Assembly (NCBI GenBank): GCA_963715635.1 | Contig: OY970261.1 | Location: 2,161,011-2,225,010, forward strand | Direction: 5' to 3' | Source of the DNA: Candidatus Aminicenantes bacterium | Lineage (GTDB): Bacteria; Acidobacteriota; Aminicenantia; Aminicenantales; UBA4085 | DNA length: 64,000 bases | In this document: one piece after another, positions 12,356 to 29,424 of the stretch | Numbering within the stretch: the first letter of the stretch is position 1 | Layout: every line of letters starts with the position of its first letter | The notes under the pieces: model-generated | What the model was told of the DNA's origin: nothing | The model's input: only the letters and a program-made list of their open reading frames with translations | Databases searched by the model: none | Translations under genes and position numbers: made by a program

Positions 12356-12715
12356 TCAATGTTCATGAACAATTTTCCATTCTCCGTTATCTTGCTGTTC
12401 TTTAACAGTATGGTGGTATGTTTTTTTCTCGTGATCAACCGTCAAAATTACTCGTGTTGGCTTTTTCGTTTTCCCGCTTATTTTATTTTCTCCTTTAGAC
12501 AAAAGTCTTTTTTGAGCATCATGATGTTTTGTTTCAAGGAAATCGAGAAATTTTAAATATTCCACGAATTCCTCTTTTATATGCTTGTGCCCGCAAGAAA
12601 GAAAATACGTCACTGCCTGACCGTCAAGAGCTGATTCATAAACGGTTTTCAATATTTCTTTTTCCCCTTTGCACGTGGGACACTCCATTTTGAGAATTTC
12701 CATTCTACCGCCCAT
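12356..12715 (-). CDS. Small zinc-ribbon protein (CPTC...CGH), 119 aa
   Basis: ORF with Cys-x2-Cys and Cys-Gly-His motifs. Same strand and operon position as its neighbours. Confidence 0.4.
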   Translation of the reverse strand: MGGRMEILKMECPTCKGEKEILKTVYESALDGQAVTYFLSCGHKHIKEEFVEYLKFLDFLETKHHDAQKRLLSKGENKISGKTKKPTRVILTVDHEKKTYHHTVKEQQDNGEWKIVHEH

Positions 12716-12844
12716 TTATATTCTGACCTTCCTTAACAGCAGGTCTTCAACGTCGGTCAATCTTATCTCAAGCCCTTGACTCTTTGCTCTCGCGGCCTCT
12801 TCATAAGCGCTTTTGGTAACGCCTCTATTATTCAAGCGTATATC

Positions 12845-13192
12845 TCAATCAAACTTAATGCCCGTGACAATGAAAAGCATCGCGACAAGAAAAATAAACG
12901 CGAGCCCCGCTATAGACGCAAAAACTCCGGCCATGAAGGAATTCATCCAGATTTCTGAACCGAATTTTTTCTTTTCGATGAAGATTTTCCTAAAAAGAAA
13001 ATACACAACAAGGATCGGAGGCAGACAGACGAATGTCAGGAGAACATCCGTGCTGCCAGGCAAAATCTTTATTTTTTGCAGACCGCTGCCTATAGAACCT
13101 AATAGAACGAACCAGCCCCAGCCATATCCCGTTGTTTTTTCAAGAGGGTCCTTCGGTTTAGGTTTTAGATAATCGCCTATTCCCATTATCAA
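12845..13192 (-). CDS. Small integral membrane protein (about 3 TM helices)
   Basis: Hydrophobic helices GWGWFVLLGSIGSGL, LLTFVCLPPILVVYFLF, AGVFASIAGLAFIFLVAMLFIV. An alternative + strand ORF overlaps it. Confidence 0.4.
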   Translation of the reverse strand: MIMGIGDYLKPKPKDPLEKTTGYGWGWFVLLGSIGSGLQKIKILPGSTDVLLTFVCLPPILVVYFLFRKIFIEKKKFGSEIWMNSFMAGVFASIAGLAFIFLVAMLFIVTGIKFD

Positions 13193-13252
13193 CCTCCTCC
13201 TCTTGTGCTATTTAGTCAAATTTTTATGTTTCCAGAGTTTTAAATAACGTTT

Positions 13253-14011
13253 TTAACTCAGATAATTTATTTTTCTTTCTTCATGCACAAGGTAATTGCC
13301 CAGTCTGGGATAACCTCTCTTGAGATCGGATTTATGAAGAGTATTTGATATATGAGCCGCAAAATCGATAACTTCGTCGAAATTCGGTGTGGGAGAGAAA
13401 ACCGTCCATCTATTTTCCTTTTCGACATAATCCCAGCATCCTCTCCCTATTACGCAAATAGCACGTAAAGCTGGCGGTTCATTTTCTTCGATATTTTCTT
13501 TATACCTTTCAATTTCATTTTTGCCGCTCGGGGCTAAATCCGAAGTAAATGCGAAAAGAGCCGGGACTATTTTATTTATGTGATGTTGAATCGGCCTATT
13601 ATTTGTGTCAAAGATTCCCGAGAGGTATATTATGTTACTTAAGATATTTTTTGCTTTATTATGAGCATCTCTGATTTCGGCTGCGGTTATCTTACTTTTA
13701 ACCTCTATCGCATAGAATACTGACTCGGCGGGAAAAAGGTAATCCTCCTCTCCGAACATTATTGAAGGCAACTTTTTCTTGCTATAAATTATTAAATCAA
13801 CCTCACTGGACTGAAACCCGGTGTGATCTATAATTTTCCCTGATATTTTTATTTTGAAATCTTCAGGAAGAATAGGCTCAATTACTCGCTGCGCCGCAAT
13901 TTCTCGAATCTTTCCCATTAAAGGATGTTCAATTCTCGCCGCTTCGGAAAATTCATCCATAGCAGTTCGAACAGAAGTAATTATTCTATTTCTAAATATT
14001 TCGTGTGGCAT
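13253..14011 (-). CDS. Predicted PD-(D/E)xK-family nuclease (252 aa)
   Basis: Motifs GKIIDH...SEVDLIIY...AESVFYAIEVKSK fit the D...(D/E)xK restriction-endonuclease-like core. Heads a 4-gene minus-strand array. Confidence 0.45.
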   Translation of the reverse strand: MPHEIFRNRIITSVRTAMDEFSEAARIEHPLMGKIREIAAQRVIEPILPEDFKIKISGKIIDHTGFQSSEVDLIIYSKKKLPSIMFGEEDYLFPAESVFYAIEVKSKITAAEIRDAHNKAKNILSNIIYLSGIFDTNNRPIQHHINKIVPALFAFTSDLAPSGKNEIERYKENIEENEPPALRAICVIGRGCWDYVEKENRWTVFSPTPNFDEVIDFAAHISNTLHKSDLKRGYPRLGNYLVHEERKINYLS

Positions 14012-14189
14012 TTAATCCCCTCCCTTACGTGATTAACATTTAAATCTTAACTGACGTTAGGACCAAAATCAATCGAACAAAGAAAATCGAAGATAGACTT
14101 CTCCAAAATCTTGTCACCAAATTGTCACAAGAAAAAGTGCCTAAAACCGCCTAATCTTGACTAAGAAGTTAAAAGGGGAAAGAAAGAAT

Positions 14190-14394
14190 TTCTCGGGGAA
14201 AAGGGAAGAGCGCCTGGGGGGACTTGAACCCCCGACAAAGGGATTAGGAATCCATTCTAGCCTGATCCGGGTCCCTCGAGAAAAAACGGTTTTCCCCTTA
14301 TAATCAAGGTTTTCTGATTAACTTTTTTTAGTCTAGATTAAGCGGATTTAAGCAAATTCTGTTACACCATGGTGACACGGGGAGGAGTCTATTT
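14190..14394. repeat. Composite repeat unit R4 (diverged): 3' half of a variant tRNA-Arg (T-arm GGGGGTTCAAGTCCCCC; 14210-14253) plus iteron arm
   Basis: The anticodon-region core ggattaggaatcc is conserved but the T-arm differs from the resident tRNA. The iteron arm is homologous to R1-R3. Confidence 0.6.
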
Positions 14395-14680
14395 TCAGAT
14401 TTGACCCCGCTTTTCATTAGTGCTATTCTATTGCCAGGCAGCTAAAAAGGGAAAAAGGCTATGAAGTTGCTCAACTATCGCGTCAAGGATTTTCTAAATC
14501 AAATTAAGGGAGTCTGAATATGGGATGGAGAGGCGTTGCTAGGGCTATAATCTCTTTAATACTCCAGCAGCCGTCGCCACAGAAAAGGAAATGCTTTAGG
14601 GAATATATTAAGCCCAAGAGATGGGAGCAAAAGAACGTCGTTATAAATGTGATTAATACTTGCATTAAGGAGCATGGCTG

Positions 14681-15265
14681 ATGGATATATGGCAATTAGA
14701 CAAGCTAAGTCTCTTTCTTATATTTTTCTTGCCCGGATTCATTTCGATAAAGATATATGATTTGCTGATTCCTTCCGAAAAAAGAGATTTCTCAAAATCA
14801 TTATTTGAAGTTATAGGATATAGCGCCCTAAATTTTGCGGCGCTTTCTTGGCTGATAATTCTAATTCACTCAGGCTACTTTTATAGAGAACATAAGTTCT
14901 GGTACCTAATAATATTGCTCTTAATTATATTCGTCATTCCTATCTTGTGGCCGATGCTTATTCTAAAAATATTATATTGGTCTCCAATTGCAAACCGAAT
15001 AATCCATCCAATTCTAAAGCCATGGGACTTTGTTTTTGGGAAGAAAAATGTTTGCTGGATAATCGTACACCTTCAAGACGGGAGAAAGATTGGCGGAAAG
15101 TACGACAGAGGATCGTTCGCCTCATCATTTCCTGCCGAAGAACAAATATACTTAGAAGAAGTATGGGAATTGGATGAAAAAGGAGCGTTTAAAAGACCAA
15201 TCGAGAGATCGCGCGGTATTATAGTATTAGGAAAGGATATTTCCTCGATTGAATTTTTTATTTAA
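14681..15265 (+). CDS. Integral membrane protein, hypothetical (194 aa)
   Basis: Several hydrophobic helices (LFLIFFLPGFISI, ALNFAALSWLIILI, YLIILLLIIFVIPILWPMLIL). Confidence 0.45.
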   Translation: MDIWQLDKLSLFLIFFLPGFISIKIYDLLIPSEKRDFSKSLFEVIGYSALNFAALSWLIILIHSGYFYREHKFWYLIILLLIIFVIPILWPMLILKILYWSPIANRIIHPILKPWDFVFGKKNVCWIIVHLQDGRKIGGKYDRGSFASSFPAEEQIYLEEVWELDEKGAFKRPIERSRGIIVLGKDISSIEFFI

Positions 15266-15484
15266 AAAGGAGAATATTATGCCGGACAAAAAGAGCAGGG
15301 TTAACAAAAAACAGGTCGTACAAATACAAGAAGGTTTTCAGCCAGTTAAAAAAGGACACCAGCCAATTAAGGGCGATTTAAATACCGCAAATCCTCCGCA
15401 GGGAGGATCTGGGGTCCCTTTAAAGCCATCAACTAGCAGCGATCGCGATAAGAAGGTTGATAAAAAGTAGGGGATTATAAATAC

Positions 15485-15672
15485 CTGGCTATTTTGATTC
15501 TTCGCAAAGAGGGGAAAATCCGAAGCCCGGACTGTCACGCCGGAGGTCGCGAGTTCGAGCCTCGTCGGCCCCGCCAGTTTTCCCCATATTTTCCCGGTTT
15601 TCCTTTTAGCGCCTTTAAGCCGATTTAAGCGAATTTTAGCAATTTTTGGAACACGGGCGGAACACGGGGAGG
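15485..15672. repeat. Repeat unit R5: 3' fragment of a different tRNA/tmRNA-like gene on + strand (T-arm GCGAG-TTCGAGC-CTCGT, acceptor CGGCCCC-G-CCA ending 15576) followed by a homologous iteron arm (TTAAGC x3, GGAACACGG x2)
   Basis: T-loop and encoded CCA are visible but no complementary 5' acceptor strand upstream. The downstream arm aligns with the R1-R4 arms. Confidence 0.5.
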
Positions 15673-15808
15673 AGTTTGGCACCAGAAGTATTTTAACCCG
15701 ATGGATCAGATGTCCTTTAGGCCACGCGAGCTGTCAATATAGAAATACCCGGTTTGCTTATTGAGGGTTGGGCCTTCATTCACATCAGCGGGGCATGAGA
15801 AATTTTTA

Positions 15809-16093
15809 TTAAAGCTTTATAATGCCCCGATCAATAAGAATCTTTATTAGCTTCTCATGATTAATAGGGCAATCTATAAGTTTCTCGAATTCTCCAATAG
15901 TGAGTGAAAGCTGTTTAGCCATATTTGATAATAGGGGATCTCCATATTCATTAAGATTGTGGCTGATTTTTGTGAAAACACTTGTTTTTTTATTTTTGTA
16001 ATAAAGAAAATAAAAAGTATGATCTCTTTGTTCTTCTTTAAATCCTTTCTTTTTCAATTGATAATCAATATCTCTTGTTTTGCGCGGATTCAT
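15809..16093 (-). CDS. Small hypothetical protein (94 aa), possibly HicA-like fold; last gene of an AT-rich 3-gene operon
   Basis: ORF overlaps the upstream gene by 4 nt. 'LKKKGF...KISH' faintly resembles HicA 'GW...GSH'. Confidence 0.4.
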   Translation of the reverse strand: MNPRKTRDIDYQLKKKGFKEEQRDHTFYFLYYKNKKTSVFTKISHNLNEYGDPLLSNMAKQLSLTIGEFEKLIDCPINHEKLIKILIDRGIIKL

Positions 16094-17040
16094 ATTTTTT
16101 CGACTCTTACTACCAAAGATAATAATAATTTTTTTAATGCTATTGCATCTGAAGTTAAATTTGCATCCTCTTCTTTTGCATAATTATCCCAGATTAAAGC
16201 AAATTCCTCTTCAAAATCTTTTATCGCTTCCTCTCTACTAAAGCTATATGCCCTTATCTTTAAGGGTTCATATTCTATTATTATTAGCGAATCCTCCTTT
16301 CGTACATCACAGGCGATTTCATGCAATAAAATAAACTTCCTGTTTAGCCAGTGAATTTCTGTAGTTCTAAAAGGTCTCAGATCTAATTCCTCGAATAATT
16401 CATAATTCAATACGTTAATTATCTTATCTAGCTTTCCGTCTTCTTTAAGTCTCGCTAGACATCTAGCTGTAATTACTGCTTCAGTTGGTTTCACCTTTTT
16501 TATTCCCTCATAGGGACCTATCAATTTAGTAATTTGATCTTCACTAGGCCGTTCTATTCGCGAGATCATAGGAAAAGCACCAAATCTAAAGGAAACTTCG
16601 TAGTCGGCCTGTTTTTTGGGAAGCACAGGAACCAGCTCATTTAATATTCTCTTTCTATATTCTCCCGATGGAATTGTTTTCTGAATAATTGCACTATTTT
16701 GTTCTTTAATAGCAAAAAAAACATTATTCAAATCCTCTGTTATTTTTTCTCCGAAATCGGGATAATCCGGAAAAAGAAGAGCCTCTTTTTCCGACAGCTC
16801 TAGGGCGGCTGTAAGGCTACCTGGTTCTGCTTTTACAAAAAAGAGTTCAAGCTCTCTTTTCATAATTGATGAGTAAGGTCCTGCACCAGAAGGTTCTCTT
16901 TCTATACGAGAATTTCCTAATATATATGTAGCTTGCTGAATATTTCTCAACGTATTCGATAGAATTGAGATCGGAACTCCGCTTTTTTTTAAACGCTTCG
17001 AAACTATATTAATTAATATTGTTCTCTTAATTTCACCCAT
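16090..17040 (-). CDS. Hypothetical protein (316 aa), AT-rich
   Basis: Long ORF, translationally coupled to the downstream gene. No recognised motif. Confidence 0.5.
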   Translation of the reverse strand: MGEIKRTILINIVSKRLKKSGVPISILSNTLRNIQQATYILGNSRIEREPSGAGPYSSIMKRELELFFVKAEPGSLTAALELSEKEALLFPDYPDFGEKITEDLNNVFFAIKEQNSAIIQKTIPSGEYRKRILNELVPVLPKKQADYEVSFRFGAFPMISRIERPSEDQITKLIGPYEGIKKVKPTEAVITARCLARLKEDGKLDKIINVLNYELFEELDLRPFRTTEIHWLNRKFILLHEIACDVRKEDSLIIIEYEPLKIRAYSFSREEAIKDFEEEFALIWDNYAKEEDANLTSDAIALKKLLLSLVVRVEKI

Positions 17041-17147
17041 TTTTTCTTTCTAAAATAAAATAAATATTCGCTTTAGGTATATCATAATCTATATGCCTTT
17101 GTGCGACTTATAAATCATAGCTCTTTTTCTTTATCCAAATCAAATGT

Positions 17148-18449
17148 CTATAATTGCTTTAAAAAATCCTCCGTTCTGTTTTCGTCTGTCAAAAATTCTA
17201 AATATTCTCTAACACTTTCCTGCAATCCAGGTCTGCCCAAAATTATGTTTGCTAATATTCTAAGACGAGAAAGTTGGCCTCGATATAATATTCTCATTTT
17301 TAGGGTTTTATTGTTTTTAGTTGTGTTAATGTATTCGATATCTGCGTTGTGGTCAAATTTCTCAAACAGTTTTTTTATAATTGGGGCGGCAGTATCCGAA
17401 TAAAAATCTTTCCTGGCGTAATGCAGGCTAGATCCTCTATGGCCAACAAATGTTAGCGTTAGTGCCGATACATATCTGCCGACTAGTTCATCAGGAATAT
17501 TTGTCCCGAGATGTTCAAGGTATTGAACGATATTTCCTTCTTTATCCCAATTATCAAGATTTTCCTCTAGCCTCAGGATGGCAGGCTCGAAAACCGCTTT
17601 TCTACTAGCATTCGAAACAAATCCAAATCCATTAATTGAAATTAAAAATTCCATAGCCTTATCTATTTTTTTCTTATTGCCAGAGACAATATCTTGATCA
17701 AAGCGCCTTCCGATTTGGATTCGGTCTTCTTTAGATAAAACGCTCCATAAAATAGGCGCACAAAATTCTATATTTGCTCGTAATACTGTCGAACTGCCCT
17801 CGTTTGTATATACTGTATATAGTTTGTGGATCAATTCATTCTTATATATGAGGGGAAGATCACTGAAGGCTTGTTCCACTGCTATGGAATTTTTATCATA
17901 GTTTTTGCTTTCCATTATAGCTAGGTATTCATCTATATTGATAATTTTTGGAGGGCATTCCTGTGAAAGAACGTATTTATTACAATCATTAATCATATCA
18001 AGCACTTTAATCGGTGATGGCTCAGAACTCTTAGGATGACCATCAAATATATGACGAGTTTCTCTAGCTTGATGAAGAATTTTATGAGCTTCCCAATCGA
18101 TTACTCCTATTTTGTATGCTCCTTCAATTAGTTCATAATCCGTTACGGTATCTTGAAAATCTTCATATCTTTTTATATTTTTTCTCATCTCTTTGTTGAA
18201 AAGATCAAGACTTCTATAAATTATTTTATTTCGGAGATCATCTATAACTGCATTCCAATAATTCCCAATTGCACTTCTATAGCCTTTAACAGTCAATACT
18301 TTTCTTGCTTCAAGAATGTAGGGATTTTCTTTGAGTTCATCTCGAACATTTATAAATGCTTTCCCTATAAAAGCTATTTCTTCATCAGACGATTTATCCA
18401 CTTTTATTATTTTGATTGCGCTGTTTTTCATAAGTTTTTCCTTCCCCAA
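17148..18449 (-). CDS. Hypothetical protein (433 aa) with possible N-terminal HEPN-like motif (RETRHIFDGH)
   Basis: Long AT-rich ORF. The R-x5-H motif sits in an alpha-helical N-terminal region. No other recognisable domain. Confidence 0.5.
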   Translation of the reverse strand: MGKEKLMKNSAIKIIKVDKSSDEEIAFIGKAFINVRDELKENPYILEARKVLTVKGYRSAIGNYWNAVIDDLRNKIIYRSLDLFNKEMRKNIKRYEDFQDTVTDYELIEGAYKIGVIDWEAHKILHQARETRHIFDGHPKSSEPSPIKVLDMINDCNKYVLSQECPPKIINIDEYLAIMESKNYDKNSIAVEQAFSDLPLIYKNELIHKLYTVYTNEGSSTVLRANIEFCAPILWSVLSKEDRIQIGRRFDQDIVSGNKKKIDKAMEFLISINGFGFVSNASRKAVFEPAILRLEENLDNWDKEGNIVQYLEHLGTNIPDELVGRYVSALTLTFVGHRGSSLHYARKDFYSDTAAPIIKKLFEKFDHNADIEYINTTKNNKTLKMRILYRGQLSRLRILANIILGRPGLQESVREYLEFLTDENRTEDFLKQL

Positions 18450-18509
18450 TAAATTTTGTCCCTCGGCTTTGCCTCTTTGATCTCAAGCTGCTCAGGCTTT
18501 TTTCCCTTC

Positions 18510-19190
18510 TTAGTGGATATAAATTCGACCCGTTTTCTGGACCCTTGTCCCTATATACTGCCGGTCCAGCCAGTCGATGGTATATTGGACATGATCTATC
18601 TGAGACCAGCTGTAGAGGTTAAAGAAGATGGCTTCAAAGACCGCACTTTGTCCGGGTTTGATATCGCCCAAGTCGGCAGGGAATCCGTGGGCCGTGTCGA
18701 GGATGGTATTGCCCGCATTGAGGGCCTGGAAAGAGATCATCACGTTCCAACCCGTCAAGTTTCCGTCATTGCGGACAATCCCGTCAATTTTTGGGCAGTG
18801 ATAGCTAGTCATCCCGTTGGAGGAAGAAGCCAAGACTATCACGGCTCGGCCTTCGACCGTGAACGTGCATTGCCTGGAAGCCGTCCCGTCCGCATTGGTC
18901 GCGGTAAGGGTCCAGGTCGTGGTCTGCGTCGGTTTAGCCTGCTGCGAGCTGGTAGCTGCGACGGAGCCGATGCCTTGGTCGATCGTCACCGAGGTCACGC
19001 CCGAAACATTCCACGAGAGAGTCGCCGTCACGTTCTCTTTATATTTGCACTGAGATGGAGATATCGAGAAATCATTTATGACCGGCGGGTGTTTTTCCGC
19101 CGGAGTGGTAGGAGTGCCTTTGCAAGCGAAACTCACCAGCACTGCCGCTAAATAAAAAACCCCAAAAACTTTTCTCAAACTTTTTTTCAT
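18510..19190 (-). CDS. Secreted/lipoprotein-like protein (226 aa), Thr/Ser-rich with beta-rich domain
   Basis: N-terminus MKKSLRKVFGVFYLAAVLVSFAC is a signal peptide with Cys. Confidence 0.5.
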   Translation of the reverse strand: MKKSLRKVFGVFYLAAVLVSFACKGTPTTPAEKHPPVINDFSISPSQCKYKENVTATLSWNVSGVTSVTIDQGIGSVAATSSQQAKPTQTTTWTLTATNADGTASRQCTFTVEGRAVIVLASSSNGMTSYHCPKIDGIVRNDGNLTGWNVMISFQALNAGNTILDTAHGFPADLGDIKPGQSAVFEAIFFNLYSWSQIDHVQYTIDWLDRQYIGTRVQKTGRIYIH

Positions 19191-19221
19191 ATTCCCCCCC
19201 TCATGAGATTGATTTTATTTT

Positions 19222-19413
19222 CTATCCTTGTTTATCGATATTTTTTTCACTCACCCCTATGGCTTCGACATTGCAGAAGGGAGGCTTTACTCCCGGGCAG
19301 CCCCAATAGCTGCGTTTATAATAGGTACATTGATAGAGCTCATCAACTTCTTTATTGTGCTCTGAAAATGGGCATTCATTACAGCTATGAGGCAAGAAGG
19401 TTTTTATTGGCAT
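19222..19413 (-). CDS. Small Cys-rich protein (63 aa), paralog of the adjacent gene
   Basis: C-x2-C...C..YY...C...C pattern is shared with the 19385-19609 protein. Confidence 0.4.
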   Translation of the reverse strand: MPIKTFLPHSCNECPFSEHNKEVDELYQCTYYKRSYWGCPGVKPPFCNVEAIGVSEKNIDKQG

Positions 19414-19609
19414 TATTTTCTTTGGCCGTAGATTTAGCGTTCTCTCCGGCCTCCTTGACGGTAATGCTTGTCACCCTGCAATAAGGCGGCTTTTCTTCAG
19501 GAACGGACACGTTGGCACGGCCGTAAAATTTGCAATGGTAAATTATGCCAACGGGTTCTGAAAATAAGCATTCGCGGCAATTTTTGGAGGTAAAAACCTT
19601 CTTTTGCAT
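19385..19609 (-). CDS. Small Cys-rich protein (74 aa), tandem paralog
   Basis: CRECLFSEP...YHCKFYGR...PPYCRV parallels CNECPFSEH...YQCTYYKR...PPFCNV. Confidence 0.4.
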   Translation of the reverse strand: MQKKVFTSKNCRECLFSEPVGIIYHCKFYGRANVSVPEEKPPYCRVTSITVKEAGENAKSTAKENNANKNLLAS

Positions 19610-19727
19610 AAAAACACCTCTGTTAATAAGAACAGTAGAAAGGCGAGAAATTTATCACTTTTTTTTAATTTTCTTGAAATAGATATATCGTATCTTAAGC
19701 TTTATCTATCAGCTTTATAGCGGTCCC

Positions 19728-19827
19728 CCGTGAGAATATTTATTCTTCCAAACGTCTCTCATAATGAGGCGATCAATCGCGAAGAGCGTCATATCGATCC
19801 TGGGGCCTTCGGGCCCAGCTCGCCTCA
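19728..19827. promoter_or_regulatory. ~100-bp intergenic repeat copy A between the TPR and Cys-rich genes. Contains the palindrome GCGATCAATCGC and a GGGCC-cgaa-GGCCC hairpin
   Basis: About 85% identical to 21545-21645. Both sit just after a stop codon and before the next gene's RBS in the same operon. Confidence 0.55.
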
Positions 19828-21531
19828 ATCCGCCGTGAGTTTCTTGAAATATTTATCTTCCCAAAGCCATTTGAAATCTTCGTCACTTTTTGCCGATTTT
19901 TTATTCTTCGGATCAAGCTGGATTGCTTTTGCCAGGGATTTCAAAGCTTCAGATTTACTTTTCATAAGGCTATAACAACAAGCCTTATTGATCCACGCCT
20001 CAGATGAATCCGGGTCCAGCTCAAGGGCTTTCTCATAAGCCTTCAGGGCTTCGTCAGGTCGGTTCAATTTGCCCAGAGTGGCACCCTTGTTGAGCCACGC
20101 GTCGGAATCCCCTGGCTTCAACTCGATGGCTCTCTCATCGGCCTTCAGGGCGTCGTCATGCCGGTTCAATTCGCTCAGAGCGACACCCTTATTGGTCCAT
20201 GCCTCTGCATTGTTAGGATCCAGCTCAAGGGCTTTCTCATAAGCCTTCAGGGCTTCGTCAGGTCGGTTCAATTTGCCCAGAGTGACACCCTTGTTGTACC
20301 ACGCTTCGGAAAAATCCGGTTTCAACTCGATGGCTCTCTCATCGGCCTTCAGGGCGTCGTCATGCCGGTTCAATTCGCTCAGAGCGACACCCTTATTGGT
20401 CCATGCCTCTGCATTGTTAGGATCCAACTCGATGGCTCTCTCCTGAGCTTTCAGGGCGTCATCGAGCCGGTTCAATTCGGCCAGAGCGATACCTTTGTTA
20501 ATCCACGCTTTGGCATCCCCTGGCTTCAACTCAATGGCTCTCTCATAAGATTTCAGGGCGTCGTCATGCCGGTTCAATTCGCTCAGAGCGACACCCTTAT
20601 TGGTCCATGCCTCTGCATTGTTAGGATCCAGCTCAAGGGCTTTCTCATAAGCCTTCAGGGCTTCGTCAGGTCGGTTCAATTTGCCCAGAGTGACACCCTT
20701 GTCGTACCACGTGTTGAAAAAATCCGGTTTCAACTCGATGGCTCTCTCCTGAGCTTTCAGGGCGTCATCGAGCCGGTTCAATTTGCCCAGAGCGATACCA
20801 CTGTTCCTCCACGCTTCCACATAAACCGGATCCAGCTCAATAGCTCGCTTGTATTGTTCAAGAGCATCTAGATATGAACCTCTAAAATAGAAATCATTTC
20901 CGCGCACTAAATAATCATGAGCTTTCAATTTAAGGCCAATAGCTTCTGCGATATCAGTCTTTTGCACGAATTTGTTCATCTGCTGTTTTATCGAATCCGA
21001 AATAACATCGTCTAATTTGACTTTAAGAAGTTGGGGAGTCTTATCTTGAATTTCTTGATAGCTTTTTTCAATATTAGCTATAATCTCATTAAATTTTTTT
21101 GATTTTTCCTCAATGTCTCTCTGCCTTTTTATTATTTCTTCATGGCACTCGATAATGTCTTCGCGCTTTTGCTTAATATCAGCTCTCAATGTATTAATAC
21201 CCCGAAATCCCAAAAAACTTGCAAGTGCTATTCCTAGCATAATTAAGGTTGTAATAGCTCCAATGGCCTTTATAATAAAATCAGATTGATTAATCGATTT
21301 ATCGAACATTCGCTGATTAAATTCAAGAATATCTCGCCAGGTTACATCTTCAGCGCTTCTAATGGGCAGCTGCGGAGATTCTTTCTGCCCTTCTTTATTT
21401 TGTTCTTGTTTTTCTGTTTTTTGTGAGATTTTTTGGTTCTTATTTGCAGGAAGATCTTGTGCTGTCAATATTTGAGCATCTACAGTTAGAAAACCGAGGA
21501 GAATTAAGGCGAGGGGAATGTACTTTTTCAT
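19825..21531 (-). CDS. TPR-repeat protein with N-terminal signal/TM and coiled-coil region (about 568 aa). Start taken at MKKYIPLALILL (GGAGG RBS)
   Basis: At least 12 near-identical 34-aa TPR units (AEAWTNKGVALSELNRHDDALKAYEKALELDPNN). ~102-bp DNA periodicity. Confidence 0.8.
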   Translation of the reverse strand: MKKYIPLALILLGFLTVDAQILTAQDLPANKNQKISQKTEKQEQNKEGQKESPQLPIRSAEDVTWRDILEFNQRMFDKSINQSDFIIKAIGAITTLIMLGIALASFLGFRGINTLRADIKQKREDIIECHEEIIKRQRDIEEKSKKFNEIIANIEKSYQEIQDKTPQLLKVKLDDVISDSIKQQMNKFVQKTDIAEAIGLKLKAHDYLVRGNDFYFRGSYLDALEQYKRAIELDPVYVEAWRNSGIALGKLNRLDDALKAQERAIELKPDFFNTWYDKGVTLGKLNRPDEALKAYEKALELDPNNAEAWTNKGVALSELNRHDDALKSYERAIELKPGDAKAWINKGIALAELNRLDDALKAQERAIELDPNNAEAWTNKGVALSELNRHDDALKADERAIELKPDFSEAWYNKGVTLGKLNRPDEALKAYEKALELDPNNAEAWTNKGVALSELNRHDDALKADERAIELKPGDSDAWLNKGATLGKLNRPDEALKAYEKALELDPDSSEAWINKACCYSLMKSKSEALKSLAKAIQLDPKNKKSAKSDEDFKWLWEDKYFKKLTAD

Positions 21532-21544
21532 AATGCCTCCGTTG

Positions 21545-21645
21545 AGAAAATATATTCTTTCAGACGTCTCTTTTAATGAGGCGATCAATCGCGAAAGCGT
21601 CGTATCGATCCGGGGGCCTTCGGGTCCCCACGCCTCAATTCTCAC
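21545..21645. promoter_or_regulatory. ~100-bp intergenic repeat copy B between the MTase and TPR genes
   Basis: Same sequence family as 19728-19827, including GCGATCAATCGC. Confidence 0.55.
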
Positions 21646-23258
21646 TTAGGCTCTTTGATCTCAAGCTGCTCGGGCTTCTTTCCTTTGAATCTCTCCGCCT
21701 TCTTGAAAGTCGCATCAACCTGTCTGATCGGGGGCATATCAATCTTTTTCCCCGCTAGAAGCTCGGCAACGGTCATTAGTTGGATCTTCGGATATTTCCT
21801 CCCCCAGGTCTTCGACTCATAGAATCCAGCCGTAACGGCTTCGGTTTGCATCGGCTTCGTCGGCTCATCCATAGAAATCAGGACGCCGATTGCGGCTTTC
21901 TCTCGATCGATGACGCCGCGCAGATCTCTGACTTGATTGGCTGTTATGTGTCCCGCTTTCACCTGGAGCTGGACGGTCTCAAATTTGCCGGGCTCGTCTC
22001 CCTGGAAGATAATTTTGCCGTCGATACCTTTATCGGCGCCCTTCTTGACTTCAACGGGTCTAGCCCCAACAAGGCCAAGCGCCCACGCCTGGAATTGGTA
22101 GTAGTCGGAATCTGCAAGCGCCTGGGCATCCGGTACACTGACGGGCTCTCCGATCACTTTGAATTGAGCCTGATTTTCGAAGGTGTCACTCATTCGCTTC
22201 TTTATCAGTGTAATCGCAAGGTGTGTGATGTCAATTCCAATCCACCACCTTTTGAGCTTTTGGGCTGCGGCGATCGTGGTACCACAGCCACAGAACGGAT
22301 CAAGGACTAAATCGCCCTCGTTGCTGCTAGCCTGGATGATCCTTTCTAAAAGAGCCTCCGGTTTTTGAGTAGGATAACCAAGGCGCTCCTGTGCCTGGGA
22401 TTGAACGGGCATTATATCGCTCCATGTATCATCAACTGGCGTCCCTTCTTGTTCATCGAGGTAGCGTTTAAGTGCAGGAACGCGACTCGGCGCAGACTGA
22501 ACGATTAAACCGTTTTTATATGCCTCCTTCATCCGGTCCTCCGTCCAGCGCCAGACGCGTGTTATACCAAGAAATTCGTAAGTAAGGTTCGGTCGGTTCT
22601 TATTAGGATTCGTAAGGTCGGCGAGCCTGTAGCGCCGACCCGTCGATGGTTCTATATATCGATAGAATTTCCGCAAGTATTCCGGGTTATGTTCTGTATA
22701 AACCGGATTCCAAGTCCATTTATCGCCGTGGGAACAGCGCAGGATCGTATCGTGATCTGCCGCAAATCGGGTGAAGGCTAATCCTTTTGCATTTGTTCTC
22801 TTCCAGACTATCTCATTGATAAAACGTTCCGGGCCAAAAATCGCGTCCATAAGCATCTTCAAATAGTGGCTAGCTGCAGGATCACAGTGCAGGTAGATAG
22901 AGGCAGTCGGCTTCATAACCCGGCGCAGTTCGACCAGCCGTGGCGCCATCATGACAAGGTAGGCCAGCATATCGCACGGACCAAGGAATTTTCGGAAAGC
23001 CTCAAGGCAATCAGCGACCTTTCCGCCCTTTGTCACCAGCTCCGCATAAATAGCCTCGTCCTCCTGGCTCCAGGTCCAGGTGTCCTCAAAGGCGCGGATC
23101 TGGCTGGCCGCCTGTGACCCGTTCTTCTCTTTGAAAAGGATGTTGTAGTTTTGGCTGCTCTTAAAGGGTGGGTCGAGATAGACGAGATCAATGCTTTCGT
23201 CTTTGATATACCGTTTCAGAATGTCAAGGTTGTCCCCATAATAAAGTGTGTTTTCCAT
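21642..23258 (-). CDS. DNA methyltransferase (beta-class N6A/N4C, DPPF...FxGxG order) fused to a C-terminal Mrr-like PD-(D/E)xK nuclease domain (538 aa)
   Basis: LVYLDPPF (motif IV) precedes [10 protein letters not shown] (motif I). C-terminus has [10 protein letters not shown]...QVKAG resembling the Mrr catalytic core. 4-nt overlap with the TPR gene. Confidence 0.8.
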
Positions 23259-23689
23259 TTTTGTTCCCCGCCTGATTTTTTAGCACAAATGGGAGACCAA
23301 GTCAAAGAACCGCAAGGGGCCGTGATGTTCAGGAGTAGGCTTCCCCCCGAGAACAGGAGCGCCATGTTTTTGAACTTTTTCACAATAACATAAGGGGAAA
23401 AGGCTTATTTCGTGGGGTTTTCTCTCAAAATGAGGAGAATTCAGTTTTTGAACACAGGGCATCCATTTTCCAGGCGTTCTTTCTCCCTTCTCTTTTCCAG
23501 CAATTATCTTTCCTGACCATCCCACAAGTGACCAACCCCAAAGCTCCATCCCCCTTCTCTCCCACTTGCGACTTAGCCCGCTTCCTTCGGGGAAACCACC
23601 TCCTGTTTTATCCCCTTTCCCCTGTGCGAACTTTACTGTAATATAAAAACAGAATTTAAGGATCCTCGATTATTCAATAAGGAGAGGAA

Positions 23690-24520
23690 ATGGATACTTT
23701 CACTCTAGATCCCGAAGTGCAGGAAAGAATTTCCGTCGCAGAATTGGCTGAGCTCATTTTTAAAATTTTGAAGCGTAATTTATCGGCATCTGAAAGAGTT
23801 GTTTCTTATTACGGCGGCTCCCTTGAATCGATAAAGGAGTTTGAGCTTCTGAGGTATCCGGGGGGCCGAGTGGCAAAAATCCACCCTAACTTTGAAAAGA
23901 AGTTCGCCCAAGCCGTACAAATGCTGAGGGATAAAGAACTCATAATGCAGGACCATGTACAGTCCCAAAGCCCAAATAACGTTGAACTTACACTAAAAGG
24001 AGAAGTAATGGAGCCCGGACAATTTCTTCCAACCGTAGAAAGCTCAGACAAGATGATTGAAGCGATAGAGAGTTCTACAGGTGCTCTTGACGAAGTAATC
24101 AAGGTTTATCTGAGGGAAGCACACGATACCTTCAAGTCTGATTTCTTGATATCTTCGGCGTTCTGCCTGGGGGCGATGTCGGAGAGATGCATCCTCATAC
24201 TTTCACAGGCAGTTGAGGCCGATTTGAAAGATCCTGTGGTCTCTGCTCAATACTTAAAATGCAAATGGGTAAAGGATTACGCCAAATTCATTTCCGAAAG
24301 TATAAACGGGCTTAGGAAAAGGCATTCCGGAAATGATGAGCTCTTCCGGGACCTTGACACTAAGATAAACACGCTTGCAGCCTATTACAGATTGACCAGA
24401 AACGAGGCCGGGCATCCGGATTTCGTTCCAAAGATTGAGAGGCCCGAGTTAGAGCTTGCTTTGAAGACAGTGCCGAGATATTTAGAAACGATTCTTGCCG
24501 TCCTGCAACTTCTAATTTGA
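23690..24520 (+). CDS. Hypothetical protein with C-terminal HEPN-like RNxxxH motif (276 aa)
   Basis: YRLTRNEAGHPDF near the C-terminus. Transcribed divergently from the MTase operon. Confidence 0.45.
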   Translation: MDTFTLDPEVQERISVAELAELIFKILKRNLSASERVVSYYGGSLESIKEFELLRYPGGRVAKIHPNFEKKFAQAVQMLRDKELIMQDHVQSQSPNNVELTLKGEVMEPGQFLPTVESSDKMIEAIESSTGALDEVIKVYLREAHDTFKSDFLISSAFCLGAMSERCILILSQAVEADLKDPVVSAQYLKCKWVKDYAKFISESINGLRKRHSGNDELFRDLDTKINTLAAYYRLTRNEAGHPDFVPKIERPELELALKTVPRYLETILAVLQLLI

Positions 24521-25326
24521 CTGCGGAGAAGTCAAGCGCGGGGGTAGCCTGTCCGGGAAAGGGATCGTTTTGCACTTAACGGTTAAAGAGAATTTACACG
24601 GGGGGGGCAGGTTGGGGAAAGGGATTGTTTTGGAGTGGGCGGCTAGGGGAGGTAAAAAATATAGGGGGGCCGTATGCCAACAGCCGAAGGAAGGGATTCG
24701 TTGGGTCGATCGGCGGGGAGTCACGGAGGCCCTATCCCCCCCAGGCCCGAGGCCGCGCGCGGTCCTGCGGAAACCTCCGCATCCTGGCAAGGCCGAAAAG
24801 GATGAGGTCTAGGCCATGGCCGAGATATCGCATGGCATCAAGGCAGACCAGGGAGATCAGAAAGCCCGAGCACCCCAGGCGAACTTAACGATTGATGCTA
24901 TTGGCGCGGGATGGTATTGTCATTAGGTGTTAACAAACCCGAGCATATCCGAATATGCAAAATCGCAAACAATAAGCGATTTATAAAAGAAACCGCATGA
25001 CAGGTGAACACCTGAACCTTACCTCCTTATCGAAGGAGGTCTGCCATGAAAGCGGAGCTGGCCAGCGGCCCGGTTTTCCCCTTAAAGGATGGGTCGCGCA
25101 ATAGCTATTATGTCAACCAGGAATCCTTATAACTTGTTTAAATATGGCATGATGCAAAAATGGGATTTTGGGATTCGCGTTATTGACATTATCTGTCAAA
25201 CAAAAGCGGTTTGCGTCCCATTTAGGGCCAAAAAATGGGGTTCAAAGCCCATTTGGGCTTAAAAATGGCCTGTTTTTGCCACTTTGGAACTAGGGTCGGG
25301 CCGGGGCCAAGAAGTAGGGCTCGGGA

Positions 25327-25926
25327 TTAAAAAGGTCCCCAATTCGGGGGAAGGTCAATAATACACGTGCCGAGTTTTTCCCGAGCCCCTTGCGCCGCTC
25401 GTTCCTCTTTCAATAATCGCCTCTCGTCTTCGGTCATGCTTTTATAGTCCGAAGCGATCCAGTCCCACATATCTTTGACCGCTGGAAGGCGCAGACGGTA
25501 TTTCCTTTGCAGCTTCCGCGAATGAGTCCTTAGACCTTCGCCGCTTTCAATCAAGGCTCTCAGCTCATCACAAACCCGGTTAAAGTTTTCTATAATCCAG
25601 AACTCATCTTTGATTCTTACGTAGTCCACAAGGCGATTTTCGGAATCGAGCTTGCGAAGGTATCCTTTTTGAATTCGCTCATCGAGTTTATAAAGGAGAC
25701 CTCGAAATCGCCAATATCGCTCCGCGGGAGTTGCAAATCGTAAATATCGCCATCGCCTGAGGAACTCTTTGATGAATAGACTATTTTTACAAGCAGCCTC
25801 AACGTCCCACTGAGGTTTCCCATCCTCTCCAATTGTTTTAAACGGCTCCATTTCCGCATGCACTTTCCGGAACCCGACGGATATCTTTCTTTGCTTCCTT
25901 CTTTTTTTCCTTATATTATCGGCCAT
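25327..25926 (-). CDS. Hypothetical basic protein (199 aa)
   Basis: ORF with Lys/Arg-rich N-terminus. No recognisable motif. Confidence 0.4.
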   Translation of the reverse strand: MADNIRKKRRKQRKISVGFRKVHAEMEPFKTIGEDGKPQWDVEAACKNSLFIKEFLRRWRYLRFATPAERYWRFRGLLYKLDERIQKGYLRKLDSENRLVDYVRIKDEFWIIENFNRVCDELRALIESGEGLRTHSRKLQRKYRLRLPAVKDMWDWIASDYKSMTEDERRLLKEERAAQGAREKLGTCIIDLPPNWGPF

Positions 25927-26043
25927 TTTCTGGTCCTGTCACATTTAGCGGGATATATATTTTCCCCCATAATGATTTTATGATTGTAAACATATTGAGT
26001 CAAGAAAAATATTTGGATGTTCAATGAGCGAAAAGGAGCAAGA

Positions 26044-26304
26044 ATGAAAAATCGCCTGCGGGAAATTAGGAAGGCGAAAGGGATCAGCCAGGCTCAGCTT
26101 TTTGGTATGACTAAAATTTGGCCCTCTAGCATCGGATTTATCGAACGGAATTTTTGGGACCCCGGCCTCGATGTAAAGCGCAGACTGGCCCGAGCCCTCA
26201 GGGTTCGCATTGTTGATTTGTTCCCGGACGTTGAATCAAAGGCAACTGCCGGATCGGGGCGTGAGTCCTGTGGGAAACCCGCGACGGAGGCAGCAGAACG
26301 ATGA
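26044..26304 (+). CDS. XRE-family (Cro/CI-type) HTH transcriptional regulator
   Basis: LREIRKAKGISQAQLFGMT HTH. AAGGAG RBS 5 nt upstream of the ATG at 26044. Confidence 0.7.
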   Translation: MKNRLREIRKAKGISQAQLFGMTKIWPSSIGFIERNFWDPGLDVKRRLARALRVRIVDLFPDVESKATAGSGRESCGKPATEAAER

Positions 26305-26352
26305 AGCCCCTACGCATCGCTCAAAATATTTTTTTAGAGATGGTAATGGAAA

Positions 26353-26661
26353 ATGGACGAAAAAAAATCAATTCCCGGGAATCTCGAAGAAGCTAGATTC
26401 CATCATCCGGCAAACGAAAAGCCGGAGGCCCTCCTTGAATGCAGTGACCTATATTTGAGCGCCTTTCTAAAATCGAGAGGCGTTGTTTTCGAGGGCCACA
26501 AGCGCGGGGAAGGGAAGCGCATCATTTTTCTTTTTCGGCGTCAGCCCGACATCGAAGACCTGATCAAGAGCTTTTACAACGATAGCCTCGTCCCGGTCCT
26601 GAGTTTTAAATCGGCCCTGCGGAATCTTCGAGACCTCATTTTCGAGGAGAGCAGGTCATGA
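26353..26661 (+). CDS. Small phage-associated protein (DUF5659-like), 102 aa
   Basis: Pattern 'DLYLSAFLKSRGVVFEG...GKRIIFLF...SFKSALRNLRDLIF' matches the phage small-protein family as I recall it. Confidence 0.4.
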   Translation: MDEKKSIPGNLEEARFHHPANEKPEALLECSDLYLSAFLKSRGVVFEGHKRGEGKRIIFLFRRQPDIEDLIKSFYNDSLVPVLSFKSALRNLRDLIFEESRS

Positions 26662-26733
26662 AGCGTTTAGAAGCTGGCTTCACGGGAACACCAAACCGCA
26701 TTCACGAGGCAGGGATGTTACCGGGAGATTGAG

Positions 26734-27177
26734 ATGGGAAAGTCGAAGTCTGAACGCGTGCCTCCCTACATTAAGCTGGAACACTACCAGATGAACACGG
26801 CGGCATGGACAGCACTTTCCGACCGAGCCGTCTGGCTCTATCTGGAATTGAGGAAACAATTCAAACCAAAAGAGGGCGGAGACTCGCATCTAGTACTTCC
26901 CTATTCGGAAGTCCGTTGGCGAATGAGTAGGACTAGCTTTTGCGACGGGATGGCCGAGCTCTGCAAATACGGATTCACAAAGGTCGTCGAGGCGGGCGGC
27001 CTTCTTCGAAGGCCCTCAGTATATGCTATCTCTCAAGAATGGATAGAAATTAGCCGCCAGATTGTTGACAAGGAAGGCAAGGCGGCAATTCGGCTCGGCC
27101 TCGCAAAAAAGCCCTCCTCCAGAAATAACCTCAAGAATCTCATCGGGAGCAGAAGATGGGAAGGGAATGGCAAGTAG
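26734..27177 (+). CDS. Hypothetical protein (147 aa), phage-module
   Basis: ORF in the regulatory module between the XRE and integrase genes. Confidence 0.4.
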   Translation: MGKSKSERVPPYIKLEHYQMNTAAWTALSDRAVWLYLELRKQFKPKEGGDSHLVLPYSEVRWRMSRTSFCDGMAELCKYGFTKVVEAGGLLRRPSVYAISQEWIEISRQIVDKEGKAAIRLGLAKKPSSRNNLKNLIGSRRWEGNGK

Positions 27178-27299
27178 TTTGGACAAGGGATCGTTTTCGG
27201 CTGGCCGCCGCCTCTTCTCCTTTCTCTCTTAGCTCTTTTAGGGAAAGAATGGGAGGAGGAGGGAAGGGAAGAGAACACATACCTGGAAATATATATAAG

Positions 27300-27420
27300 G
27301 CATCCAAACAATGGAACTGTTGCGGACGCCAACTGTTCCAAACAATGGAACTGTTAGGCTTTAACTGTTCCAAACAATGGAACGAATCGTTCCAAACAAT
27401 GGAACTGTCTATGATTTCTC
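27300..27420. promoter_or_regulatory. Four direct copies of a 17-bp palindromic operator/iteron GTTCCAAACAATGGAAC
   Basis: Copies at about 27304, 27334, 27362 and 27385, each internally palindromic (GTTCCA..TGGAAC). Confidence 0.6.
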
Positions 27421-27556
27421 AATCGAGTTGTGCGGGGACATCTTTATTTTTTTCTTATAAAAGACAAAGAAAAAGAAAAGGAGAAAGAACTGCCGGGCCT
27501 GGAAGAAAAGGAAAAAGCCGAGGAGGAAGCGATCCCATTTTGAGGACGGCGAGAAC

Positions 27557-27841
27557 GTGACAAAAGGTCGAGCCATTTACTTGAAGTGCTTGGACTGTGC
27601 GGCAGGCGACCGAAAAGAAGTCCTGTTCTGCACGCTTTTCGATTGTCCGCTCTGGGAGTACCGCTGCGGATGTCATGTTTCATCCAGGAGATATCGGGAC
27701 CGGATTGAACGCGGCTTCCAGACCTTCACCCTGATTGTCGCCGAACTTCGCAGCCAGGGCCTGGATTGCCCGAATTTTCTTCGGAATGATGAGCAGGCTA
27801 GTGTTTCCGTGGGCTATCGAGGAAAACACGGGGCGCACTAA
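27557..27841 (+). CDS. Small Cys-rich hypothetical protein (94 aa)
   Basis: ORF with CLDCAAG...CTLFDCPLWEYRCGCH. Confidence 0.3.
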   Translation: MTKGRAIYLKCLDCAAGDRKEVLFCTLFDCPLWEYRCGCHVSSRRYRDRIERGFQTFTLIVAELRSQGLDCPNFLRNDEQASVSVGYRGKHGAH

Positions 27842-27864
27842 GGACGCATGATTCGAGGGACAGC

Positions 27865-29310: not shown

Positions 29311-29313
29311 GAG

Positions 29314-29391
29314 ATGGCGCGCCTGGCCGGACTCGAACCAGCGACACAGGGATTAGGAATCCCTTGCTCTATCCAAACTGAGCTACAGGCG
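29314..29391 (-). tRNA. tRNA-Arg (anticodon CCT), complete with encoded CCA
   Basis: Cloverleaf resolved by eye: acceptor GCGCCTG/CAGGCGC, D-arm GCTC-AGTTTGGATA-GAGC, anticodon stem-loop AGGGA-TTCCTAA-TCCCT, T-arm GCTGG-TTCGAGT-CCGGC, discriminator G, CCA. Confidence 0.85.
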
Positions 29392-29424
29392 CGCAGGATC
29401 GAAAGAGATTATAAACCGCTGATT

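Follow-up and report, generated by a model that had tools for sequence, protein, structure and literature searches.

Temperate phages and satellites encode small immunity or antisense RNAs, among them the CI RNA of P4 and the C4 RNA of P1/P7 (Rfam C4, RF01695), and cis-antisense RNAs occur inside operons. The attC sites of integrons are structured imperfect palindromes at cassette junctions, with RYYYAAC and GTTRRRY cores. The stoperators of mycobacteriophage L5 and similar phages are reportedly repressor sites of 13 bp, unstructured and repeated in dozens of copies. The enterobacterial repetitive intergenic consensus (ERIC), the repetitive extragenic palindromes and bacterial interspersed mosaic elements (REP/BIME) and the Correia elements (Correia repeat enclosed elements, CREE) are palindromic intergenic repeats of ~100-150 bp within transcription units, and some such repeats, for example the Correia elements, carry promoters. 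Here we analyse a repeated intergenic element of ~105 bp found in a 64,000-nucleotide stretch of DNA (the window; contig OY970261.1, positions 2,161,011 to 2,225,010) of a Candidatus Aminicenantes bacterium. Two of its copies lie in a locus that comprises genes for a DNA methyltransferase (MTase), a tetratricopeptide repeat (TPR) protein, two small Cys-rich proteins (Cys1 and Cys2) and a probable lipoprotein. An earlier note on this DNA had taken the locus for a single operon, perhaps with a defence function, punctuated by a repeated operator or RNA leader.

Comparison of copies from many contigs identifies the repeats as a genuine family of structured intergenic units, under selection and not described before, which is specific to the cargo regions of integrative elements and prophages. 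Selection is indicated because conservation is strongly non-uniform, in that short blocks and the pairing are kept and the rest varies. We tentatively favour, at somewhat less than even confidence, the reading that the element is a compact small-RNA gene with its own promoter, antisense to the flanking genes.

The element family and its fold

Copy A (21536-21644, minus strand in gene orientation) extends from the stop codon of the MTase gene to the GGAGG of the TPR gene, and copy B lies at 19724-19834 on the same strand; the two covariance models that we built, R1 and R2, score them at 108/104 and 115/110 bits. The two copies are about 88% identical, with 89% over 53 nt and 91% over 32 nt, and share the 18-mer GAGGCGATCAATCGCGAA, which occurs at these two sites only in the 64-kb window, where 0.16 would be expected. 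A third, diverged copy (12224-12350, minus strand; 35.5 bits with R1 and 68.4 bits with R2) is found 7 kb away in the older remnant of a neighbouring island, with a 119-aa gene on one side and on the other a HEPN-like gene of 189 aa (Pfam HEPN_Cthe2314, a weak match). Read in gene orientation, the element consists of TTGAGGCG, a long hairpin, ~10 nt ending in AUGA, a short hairpin (CGC/GCG), AUUGAU and CGCCUCAU, and past CGCCUCAU come 6 nt, AGACG, 16-17 nt and TTCTCA; in the third copy the GTG start of the HEPN-like gene stands in place of the TTCTCA block. The ends TTGAGGCG...CGCCTCAT, or their complement, are present in all copies.

The earlier note had described A and B as ~100-bp repeats that carry a perfect palindrome and a GC-rich hairpin just before the ribosome binding site (RBS) of the next gene. 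The repeats are indeed real, structured and non-random, and both do have the GC-rich hairpin with its CGAA loop (UUCG on the other strand). The supposed palindrome, GCGATCAATCGC, proves to be a 5+5 inverted repeat, with arms GCGAT and ATCGC around a non-symmetric CA, and the position before the RBS is right for copy A but wrong for copy B, which ends about 110 nt before Cys1. The search for further copies that the note had proposed was productive, since it raised the family to 22 distinct members, the third copy of the window included. The note had also considered that the repeats might be common genome-wide REP elements; in the scope covered here they do not behave as such, as described below.

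Each copy independently folds into the same three-way junction, in which helix P1 encloses the short and the long hairpin. The z-scores of the minimum free energy (MFE) range over the copies from -1.3 to -5.5, with -3.05 for A (against dinucleotide shuffles) and -2.1 for B. Over the 22 copies, aligned by fitting to the covariance model, pairing is kept in 88.6% of cells; sliding the partners lowers this to 38-54%. Changes on both sides are seen in eight pairs, and none of 500 shuffles reaches the observed values for four of five measures. A covariation test on 13 copies points the same way. The long hairpin is wholly different between copies in sequence and in length (7 to about 17 bp), and always paired. 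P1 takes the form GAGGCC/GGCCUC in one copy (L129; L numbers are our own labels for loci outside the window), and the short hairpin occurs as CGCU/AGCG, CCGC/GCGG and CGCUC/GAGCG.

Several known structures were considered for this fold and set aside. A terminator scan found no intrinsic terminator at A or B, and no U-tract follows the hairpins or P1 on either strand. A hammerhead-type or other ribozyme core was dropped because the junction strands do not suit a hammerhead, a retron msr/msd because no reverse transcriptase gene is present, and a selenocysteine insertion sequence (SECIS) or read-through signal because A and B do not share one reading frame relative to the element. Lambda-type boxA/boxB was also dropped, since the boxA-like CGCUCUU is swapped for compensating hairpin variants in other copies. 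A peptide starting at the AUG of AUGAGGCG was rejected, as a 1-nt indel between A and B and the variable hairpin lengths break the frame.

The family was gathered by pattern scans together with R1 and R2, and its 22 distinct copies lie on about 15 contigs, with up to three per contig. Outside the window, copies are found on three viral contigs (L091, L145 and L147), on L096, L097 (two), L098, L099, L124/125, L127, L129, L148/149/150 (three and one) and L151 (three), and on L047, a metagenome-assembled genome (MAG) labelled Eubacteriales, which has one strong copy and a weak 19-20-bit match. Pattern matches in L094, L095, L123, L141-L144 and L146 were judged to be chance. An exact scan with the 18-mer of 185,579 species genomes gave 90 matches, which extension scoring marks as single chance ones except for L047, and no species-representative genome has more than one strong copy. 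The three copies of the window are all inside integrated islands, and none is present in ~45 kb of flanking chromosome. Searches of cultured phage and plasmid collections (blastn) returned only chance matches of 17-36 nt. The element region has no match to a family of Rfam 15 on either strand even at E <= 10; over 19600-21700 the best Rfam values are E 1.4-7.6 and 14-17 bits, against gathering thresholds of 38-100, and in the whole window tRNA-Arg alone passes. No occurrence of the core sequence was found in the literature searched.

The orientation of the element is that of the downstream gene in all 22 copies, and no terminal inverted repeats or target duplications are seen across them. An association with the MTase was rejected, because 23 viral and most metagenomic MTase loci have no element and many copies lie behind other genes. 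When the window is compared with L091 and L124, homology covers the 3' end of the MTase gene and the element, and breaks between the Shine-Dalgarno (SD) sequence and the ATG; past that break L091 and L124 have a 73-aa gene, and the window has the TPR gene. For two genes, that of the window TPR protein and a 303-aa gene in L129, the element itself supplies the TGA. The element thus stands at module junctions, where it probably offers shared homology for the exchange of cargo.

Strand and function of the element

Read on the strand that is opposite to the genes, the element is TGAGAA-N16/17-CGTCT-N6-ATGAGGCG, with a spacing that is constant in 21 of the 22 copies and spacers that vary freely; the equivalent on the gene strand is GCCTCAT-N6-AGACG-N16/17-TTCTCA, again in 21 of 22. 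The putative +1 is the first base of P1, the A of ATGAGGCG, which corresponds to 21576 in copy A and 19764 in copy B on the plus strand. In copy A the promoter-like blocks, TGAGAA (21543-21548) and CGTCT (21565-21569), are separated by 16 nt (21543-21569, plus strand), and are followed by a core of 63 nt (21576-21638, plus strand), AUGAGGCG...CGCCUCAA, which comes to within 3 nt of the MTase stop codon. Its fold (-29.5 kcal/mol) consists of P1 and two hairpins, a short one closed by a GAAA loop and a long one closed by UUCG. Copy B has TGAGAA-N16-CGTCT at 19731-19757 and a core of 65 nt that forms the three-way junction at 19764-19828, both on the plus strand. The conserved unit is bounded exactly by the TGAGAA block and by the 3' strand of P1, and in degenerate copies the blocks stay while the helices decay.

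Two further sets of observations bear on the strand. A partial relative in L137 (5864-5915; also in L136 and L138) reads TGAGAA-N17-CGTCT-N8-TGAGGCGAATATTCGC and has no three-way junction; it lies downstream of an excisionase-like gene, is aimed at a homolog of the window lipoprotein gene, and retains, along with the blocks, the first bases of the would-be transcript. The tetraloops, moreover, belong to the opposite strand only: UUCG closes the long hairpin of four copies, where it is kept though the stem has changed, and the short hairpin of L127, and GAAA (two copies) and GCAA (the third window copy) are likewise found on that strand alone. Because of the fixed spacing, the exact ends, the decayed copies, the L137 relative and the tetraloops of the opposite strand, we regard an antisense small-RNA gene as the best single model.

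Under this model, the blocks would act as a promoter of the kind used by extracytoplasmic function (ECF) sigma factors (TGAGAA, 16-17 nt, CGTCT), which after 6 nt would start an RNA of 63-90 nt. The RNA would run from AUGAGGCG to CGCCUCAA, with ends that pair as P1 and enclose the short hairpin and the long variable one. Either the RNA or convergent transcription itself would insulate or down-regulate the gene on the promoter side and so separate cargo modules, and the conserved unit could at the same time serve as portable homology by which these modules are swapped. A head-to-head pair in L151 (5757-5932) gives a further view of the arrangement: two inverted copies share one hairpin between a divergent unknown 168-aa gene and a Cys-rich gene, and each promoter-like half points through the partner copy to the opposite gene. 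This layout is compatible with real promoters and is no proof of them.

A number of points weigh against the antisense model. The blocks match a bacterial promoter (two hexamers 16-18 bp apart and a start 5-8 nt past the second) in geometry only; the hexamers differ from TTGACA and TATAAT and are not sigma-70-like, and a sigma-70 promoter inside the element was sought and gave a weak 9/12 site in copy A alone. We take CGTCT to resemble the -10 of ECF promoters (CGTC), and the AAC that is usual at -35 is missing; nor did these elements show a gene for a sigma factor. The 3' end of the RNA is undefined, since no U-tract follows P1. Folding energies and counts of G-U pairs favour neither strand. 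The covariation figures come from an alignment fitted to the covariance model, and many copies are related by descent. About seven well-preserved copies have GGAGG and the next start codon 2-20 nt beyond the TGAGAA block; in such copies, transcription of the next gene has to cross the element in the opposite sense, which suits an RNA of the gene strand at least equally well. Finally, copies in L151 and L150 have no co-directional upstream gene and are still oriented as the downstream gene, and the orientation shared by all 22 copies, even where there is no upstream gene, ties the element to the gene that follows it.

A more far-reaching form of the antisense model is doubtful in our estimate. 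It would make the unit a new class of self-contained small-RNA gene, transcribed antisense to the cargo genes from an ECF-like promoter. Integrative elements and prophages of sediment bacteria that have not been cultured (Aminicenantes and others) would each carry 1-3 copies, which would respond to stress or infection by gating read-through into modules of defence and other cargo, and also serve as portable joints for module exchange.

The alternative that survives best, although we consider it doubtful too, is that the functional RNA is made from the gene strand, within a polycistronic or downstream transcript, as a signal for processing, stability or termination-insulation or as a 5' leader. 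In the leader version the anti-SD-like CCUC of P1 and the SD past TTCTCA would permit translational control. The uniform orientation with flanking or downstream genes and the start codons with GGAGG directly past TTCTCA in about seven copies are what such an RNA would be expected to give, and most copies begin 0-10 nt past the upstream stop, two of them providing the TGA themselves. The spacers are purine-rich on the gene strand, the fold is equally stable there, and the element, a promoter-like region and the Cys-rich gene are kept as one unit. Yet about half of the copies have 100-230 nt before the next start codon, a stretch that in places holds a promoter-like region of its own, and consequently there is no conserved geometry for sequestering the SD. 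As a riboswitch or leader the element is also poorly placed, with a distance from P1 to the start codon that varies from 31 to more than 200 nt and a separate promoter-like region at Cys1. It is not an intrinsic terminator, as no hairpin is followed by a U-tract. The constant spacings of 6 and 16/17 nt between the blocks are left unexplained by an RNA of this strand, in which a helix GAGA/UCUC ('P3') would close an unstructured loop of 17-20 nt, and the special tetraloops are on the other strand.

It is unlikely that the element works as a DNA site, double- or single-stranded, be it an oriented binding site for a protein encoded by the mobile element, a silencing site of the kind of the mycobacteriophage stoperators, an upstream operator or an attC-like site for the recombination of cargo. 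Blocks at fixed distance and the inverted repeat GCGAT-N2-ATCGC do look like binding sites for proteins, the pairing has no strand asymmetry, and copies lie in one orientation, several per element, exactly at the points where related elements cease to be homologous. The block from the TPR to the lipoprotein gene has a duplicated MTase 3' end at its flanks, as after a site-specific insertion, and the L151 pair is fused head to head around one hairpin. A duplex binding site, however, does not need a long hairpin that covaries with its sequence free and its pairing kept. The attC cores RYYYAAC and GTTRRRY are absent on both strands, there is no integron integrase next to it, the majority of cargo genes are not followed by a copy, and the duplicate at 18467-18508 is MTase coding sequence and not the element. 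In the gene tables, furthermore, no candidate binding protein co-occurs with all copies.

Still less probable, in our view, is a selfish miniature repeat (a miniature inverted-repeat transposable element, MITE, or a REP- or ERIC-like sequence) without function for the element that hosts it. The copies are short, palindromic, intergenic and numerous, some are degenerate, and identity reaches 85-90% between unrelated contexts, all of which such a repeat could explain. Its expected spread is not seen, though, either in the flanking chromosome of the window or in the representative genomes, where L047 adds a weak match only. The single orientation of the 22 copies, the lack of terminal inverted repeats and target duplications, and a strongly non-uniform conservation, which implies selection, argue against it as well.

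The host island, the methyltransferase and its cargo

The gene for tRNA-Arg(CCT) (29315-29392, minus strand; Rfam tRNA match) is the target of the island integrase, a 481-aa protein with HTH_17 and Phage_integrase domains by domain search (27865-29310, plus strand), and is flanked on its other side by a second tyrosine integrase (29425-30582, minus strand). Exact copies of 47-49 bp of one tRNA-Arg half are found at 2061-2107, 3536-3582 and 6833-6881, a 43-bp copy of the other half at 40004-40046, and a degenerate att copy, 86% identical, at the other island end (14210-14253). Because of the tRNA, the flanking integrases and these att-like copies, the locus from the MTase to the lipoprotein gene is placed within a ~15-kb island (14253-29317). 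The island is, by implication, part of a tandem array of integrated elements that have reused tRNA-Arg(CCT) as integration site. Low G+C across 12-24 kb of the window agrees with the island.

L132/L133 and L126 have the same backbone as the island, made of the integrase (HTH_17 and Phage_integrase), DnaB/RepO, DUF5659, a helix-turn-helix gene and the MTase, followed by variable cargo. The plan of the mobile element would thus consist of integrase, small regulators and MTase as backbone, with the locus in the cargo half and variable cargo downstream. All genes of the locus are on the minus strand with short gaps. At about 15545-15590 the 3' end of a tRNA-like sequence stands alone (T-arm, acceptor stem and CCA: GGTCGCGAGTTCGAGCCTCGTCGGCCCCGCCA); no complete tRNA is called there, and it is probably the att remnant of another element. 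Cargo of defence type and orphan genes are abundant near the copies of the element (11663-17040 in the window; L097, L127 and L128), and include HEPN-like, DUF6602, DUF6338, Hypoth_Ymh, AbiJ and patatin proteins and a CD-NTase with Cap15 of a cyclic-oligonucleotide-based antiphage signalling system (CBASS).

The MTase gene (21642-23258, minus strand) codes for a 538-aa beta-class N6A/N4C DNA methyltransferase with a C-terminal Mrr/MspJI-like domain at residues ~370-500. Its translation has the motif order DPPF (residues 29-32), then FCGCGT near residue 323. Residues 23-353 match the full PF01555 (N6_N4_Mtase) profile with E 6.9e-44 in Pfam, phrog_67 spans residues 1-520, and its sequence relatives in the PDB are CcrM, MboIIA, RsrI and DpnA. 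Residues 403-501 match PF22722 (NA-iREase1; 1e-11, 45.1 bits with a cut-off of 27) and PF04471 (Mrr_cat; 8e-8, 32.9 bits with a cut-off of 21). The AlphaFold model of the C-terminal 173 residues has a predicted local distance difference test (pLDDT) score of 82.9, and its best Foldseek matches are the nuclease domains of MspJI (E 7e-6) and AspBHI. The class and the Mrr-like C-terminal core given by the earlier note are supported by these results.

The D...QxK signature is the catalytic arrangement of Mrr/MspJI nucleases. An alignment of catalytic residues, suggested in the same note, finds D413, Q432 and K434 in the window protein, and from this together with the MspJI/AspBHI model match we conclude that a restriction endonuclease (REase) fold with D...QxK is present. 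Among 119 close homologs D409 and D413 (GIDG) and K434 are invariant, and the helix-1 position, which is usually acidic, is an invariant Gln (QFQ); at position 432, 116 of them have Ser and only three, the window MTase included, have Gln. The best Pfam match of the domain is, in addition, a family named 'inactive' REase (PF22722). Given the family-wide Ser at 432 and this Pfam family, a nuclease role is uncertain, and we regard nuclease activity of the domain as doubtful. Of the idea that modification and nuclease are joined in one polypeptide, the fold and D...QxK stand; that this makes a special system does not.

At least 8000 homologs at E <= 1e-30 were found in a search of 5.8 billion proteins, and all of the 120 best of more than 8000 combine PF01555 with PF22722, usually with PF04471 as well. 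Their source annotations are DNA methylase and in some cases restriction endonuclease. Full-length relatives are present on 23 IMG/VR contigs, and the closest named ones come from Aminicenantes MAGs. These searches indicate that the fusion of MTase and Mrr-like domain is already known and is among the commonest methyltransferase architectures of phages and mobile genetic elements (MGEs), and it should not be taken for a novel restriction-modification (RM) system. A truncated relative in L099 (406-1167) has a new N-terminus, after which just the final MTase motifs and the REase-fold domain are left; a copy of the element still follows it. No gene for a cognate restriction endonuclease and no core genes of a bacteriophage exclusion (BREX) system (PglZ, BrxC, BrxL and others) were found next to the MTase.

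The TPR gene (19825-21531, minus strand) codes for 568 aa, with an N-terminal signal or transmembrane segment, a coiled coil and ~10 TPR units (Pfam TPR families). It starts with the ATG at 21531 behind GGAGG, 110 nt past the MTase stop, and its stop TGA sits inside P1 of copy B. The units are built from 102-nt DNA repeats; eight of them lie in register at 19881-20894 (34 aa each), alternate units being up to 88% identical in DNA, which suggests a recent internal duplication. Cys1 (19385-19609, 74 aa, CxxC...C...C) and Cys2 (19222-19413, 63 aa) are both on the minus strand, and their open reading frames (ORFs) overlap by 29 nt. The 41% identity of the two proteins (E 1e-12) confirms them as paralogs. 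Their family (CxxC...C...PP[YF]C) comprises about 10 proteins without a Pfam match, every one in a mobile-element context. Cys-rich genes (in the window, L148, L151 and L152) are typically the first of a run of small genes beside excisionase-like or recombinase genes, and the protein may therefore be a zinc-binding regulator of mobile elements.

The region upstream of Cys1 (19610-19723, minus strand), with an A-tract, the extended -10-like TGATAAAT (19650-19658 on the plus strand) and an SD, is nearly identical in L148 and L151 according to a three-way alignment, and the element, this promoter-like region and the Cys gene thus recur together in three unrelated contexts. The last gene of the block (18510-19190, minus strand) encodes a secreted protein or probable lipoprotein of 226 aa with an Ig-like middle domain and a weak match to phrog_2155; its about 20 full-length homologs lie in prophage-like contexts without TPR or Cys neighbours. 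One base past its stop begins a remnant of the MTase 3' end, the last ~14 codons (18467-18508, 42 bp, minus strand), which is 88% identical to 21645-21686, matches MTase 3' ends only, and remains open in its frame as far as a TGA that shares bases with the ATG of a 427-aa gene (minus strand; phrog_27609 match). In the simplest reading, an MTase gene was once coupled directly to the 427-aa gene, and the 3.1 kb that reach from element A to the lipoprotein gene would then have entered as a block at the MTase 3' end.

The genes downstream of MTase homologs differ from locus to locus. No relatives of the TPR, Cys or lipoprotein genes were found by tblastn in any MTase locus, and in the neighbourhood tables lipoprotein and Cys homologs elsewhere never adjoin this MTase, the TPR gene or each other; a conserved TPR/Cys/lipoprotein module was ruled out on the same grounds. 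Because of the MTase remnant, the differing downstream genes, the lack of co-occurrence and the separate upstream region of Cys1, the locus is not one ancestral operon. As far as sequence comparison goes, recombination has brought unrelated cargo modules behind the MTase, namely the TPR gene and the genes for Cys1, Cys2 and the lipoprotein.

Several claims of the earlier note do not hold. The single operon is not supported by the varied MTase neighbours and the rest of the evidence just given, and an operator or leader within it does not suit an element that is portable among many unrelated gene contexts and whose blocks we read as a promoter of the opposite strand. The 4-nt overlap between MTase and TPR genes arises only with a 606-aa ORF read from GTG 21645 across the repeat, an artefact of ORF calling, and the 'giant' TPR protein has 568 aa only. 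That all these genes make up a single defence operon of RM-like or BREX-like type, with a repeated operator or leader as its punctuation, is highly improbable and appears largely refuted by the comparison of gene neighbourhoods: although the genes share a strand with short gaps throughout, the REase-fold domain of the MTase has D...QxK and the neighbourhood is rich in defence-type cargo (HEPN-like, DUF6602), the partners co-occur neither with the MTase family nor with each other, PADLOC run over the locus gives no system but only MTase models (MTase_II/III) for the MTase and generic TPR matches, with none for the other neighbours, the MTase-end remnant marks an insertion, the Cys genes have a separate promoter-like region, and Ser replaces the motif Gln in 97% of homologs.

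Should the repeats prove to be genes for antisense small RNAs, or else oriented silencing sites, they would reveal how mobile elements of poorly known phyla insulate and regulate newly captured cargo, defence genes included. They would also mark points of cargo recombination, and covariance model R2 could then be used as a tag for cargo junctions in metagenomes.

Comparison with known systems

The window MTase shares the order of DPPF followed by FxGxG with beta-class MTases, of which those of PHROG 67 also have a C-terminal REase-fold domain; its own C-terminus matches the catalytic domains of MspJI and AspBHI in fold, and its D413...Q432-x-K434 is the arrangement of Mrr and MspJI. It differs in that it has neither a domain that reads DNA modification nor a separate REase gene.

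Read as a small-RNA gene, the element would join the P4 CI RNA, the P1/P7 C4 RNA and cis-antisense RNAs as a highly structured mobile-element RNA of 60-90 nt, so placed that it could interfere with transcription nearby. Unlike the C4-type RNAs it has no Rfam match and no complementary targets were identified for it, it is present in several copies per mobile element, and it has promoter-like blocks of its own that are not of the sigma-70 type, instead of being processed from a leader.

With integron attC sites the element shares the imperfect palindrome that begins at or inside the preceding stop codon, the orientation of the genes, the conserved ends, the central hairpin that is free in sequence and length, and the place at cassette junctions. 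It differs from them in having neither their cores nor IntI, the island integrase being a tyrosine recombinase of phage type. Only 3 of about 12 co-directional cargo genes carry a copy, and the ~45-bp promoter-like extension has no counterpart in attC.

Stoperators of the L5 type, like the element, are repeated in the short intergenic spaces of a temperate element in one orientation to transcription; the element, in contrast, is ~105 bp long, has covarying helices and 1-3 copies per mobile element, and no repressor is known for it. ERIC, REP/BIME and Correia repeats resemble it in their size, their palindromes and their position between the genes of transcription units. In the sequences covered here, the element is set apart from them in that it is not spread genome-wide and lacks terminal inverted repeats and target duplications, and in being strictly oriented and confined to the cargo of integrative elements and prophages.

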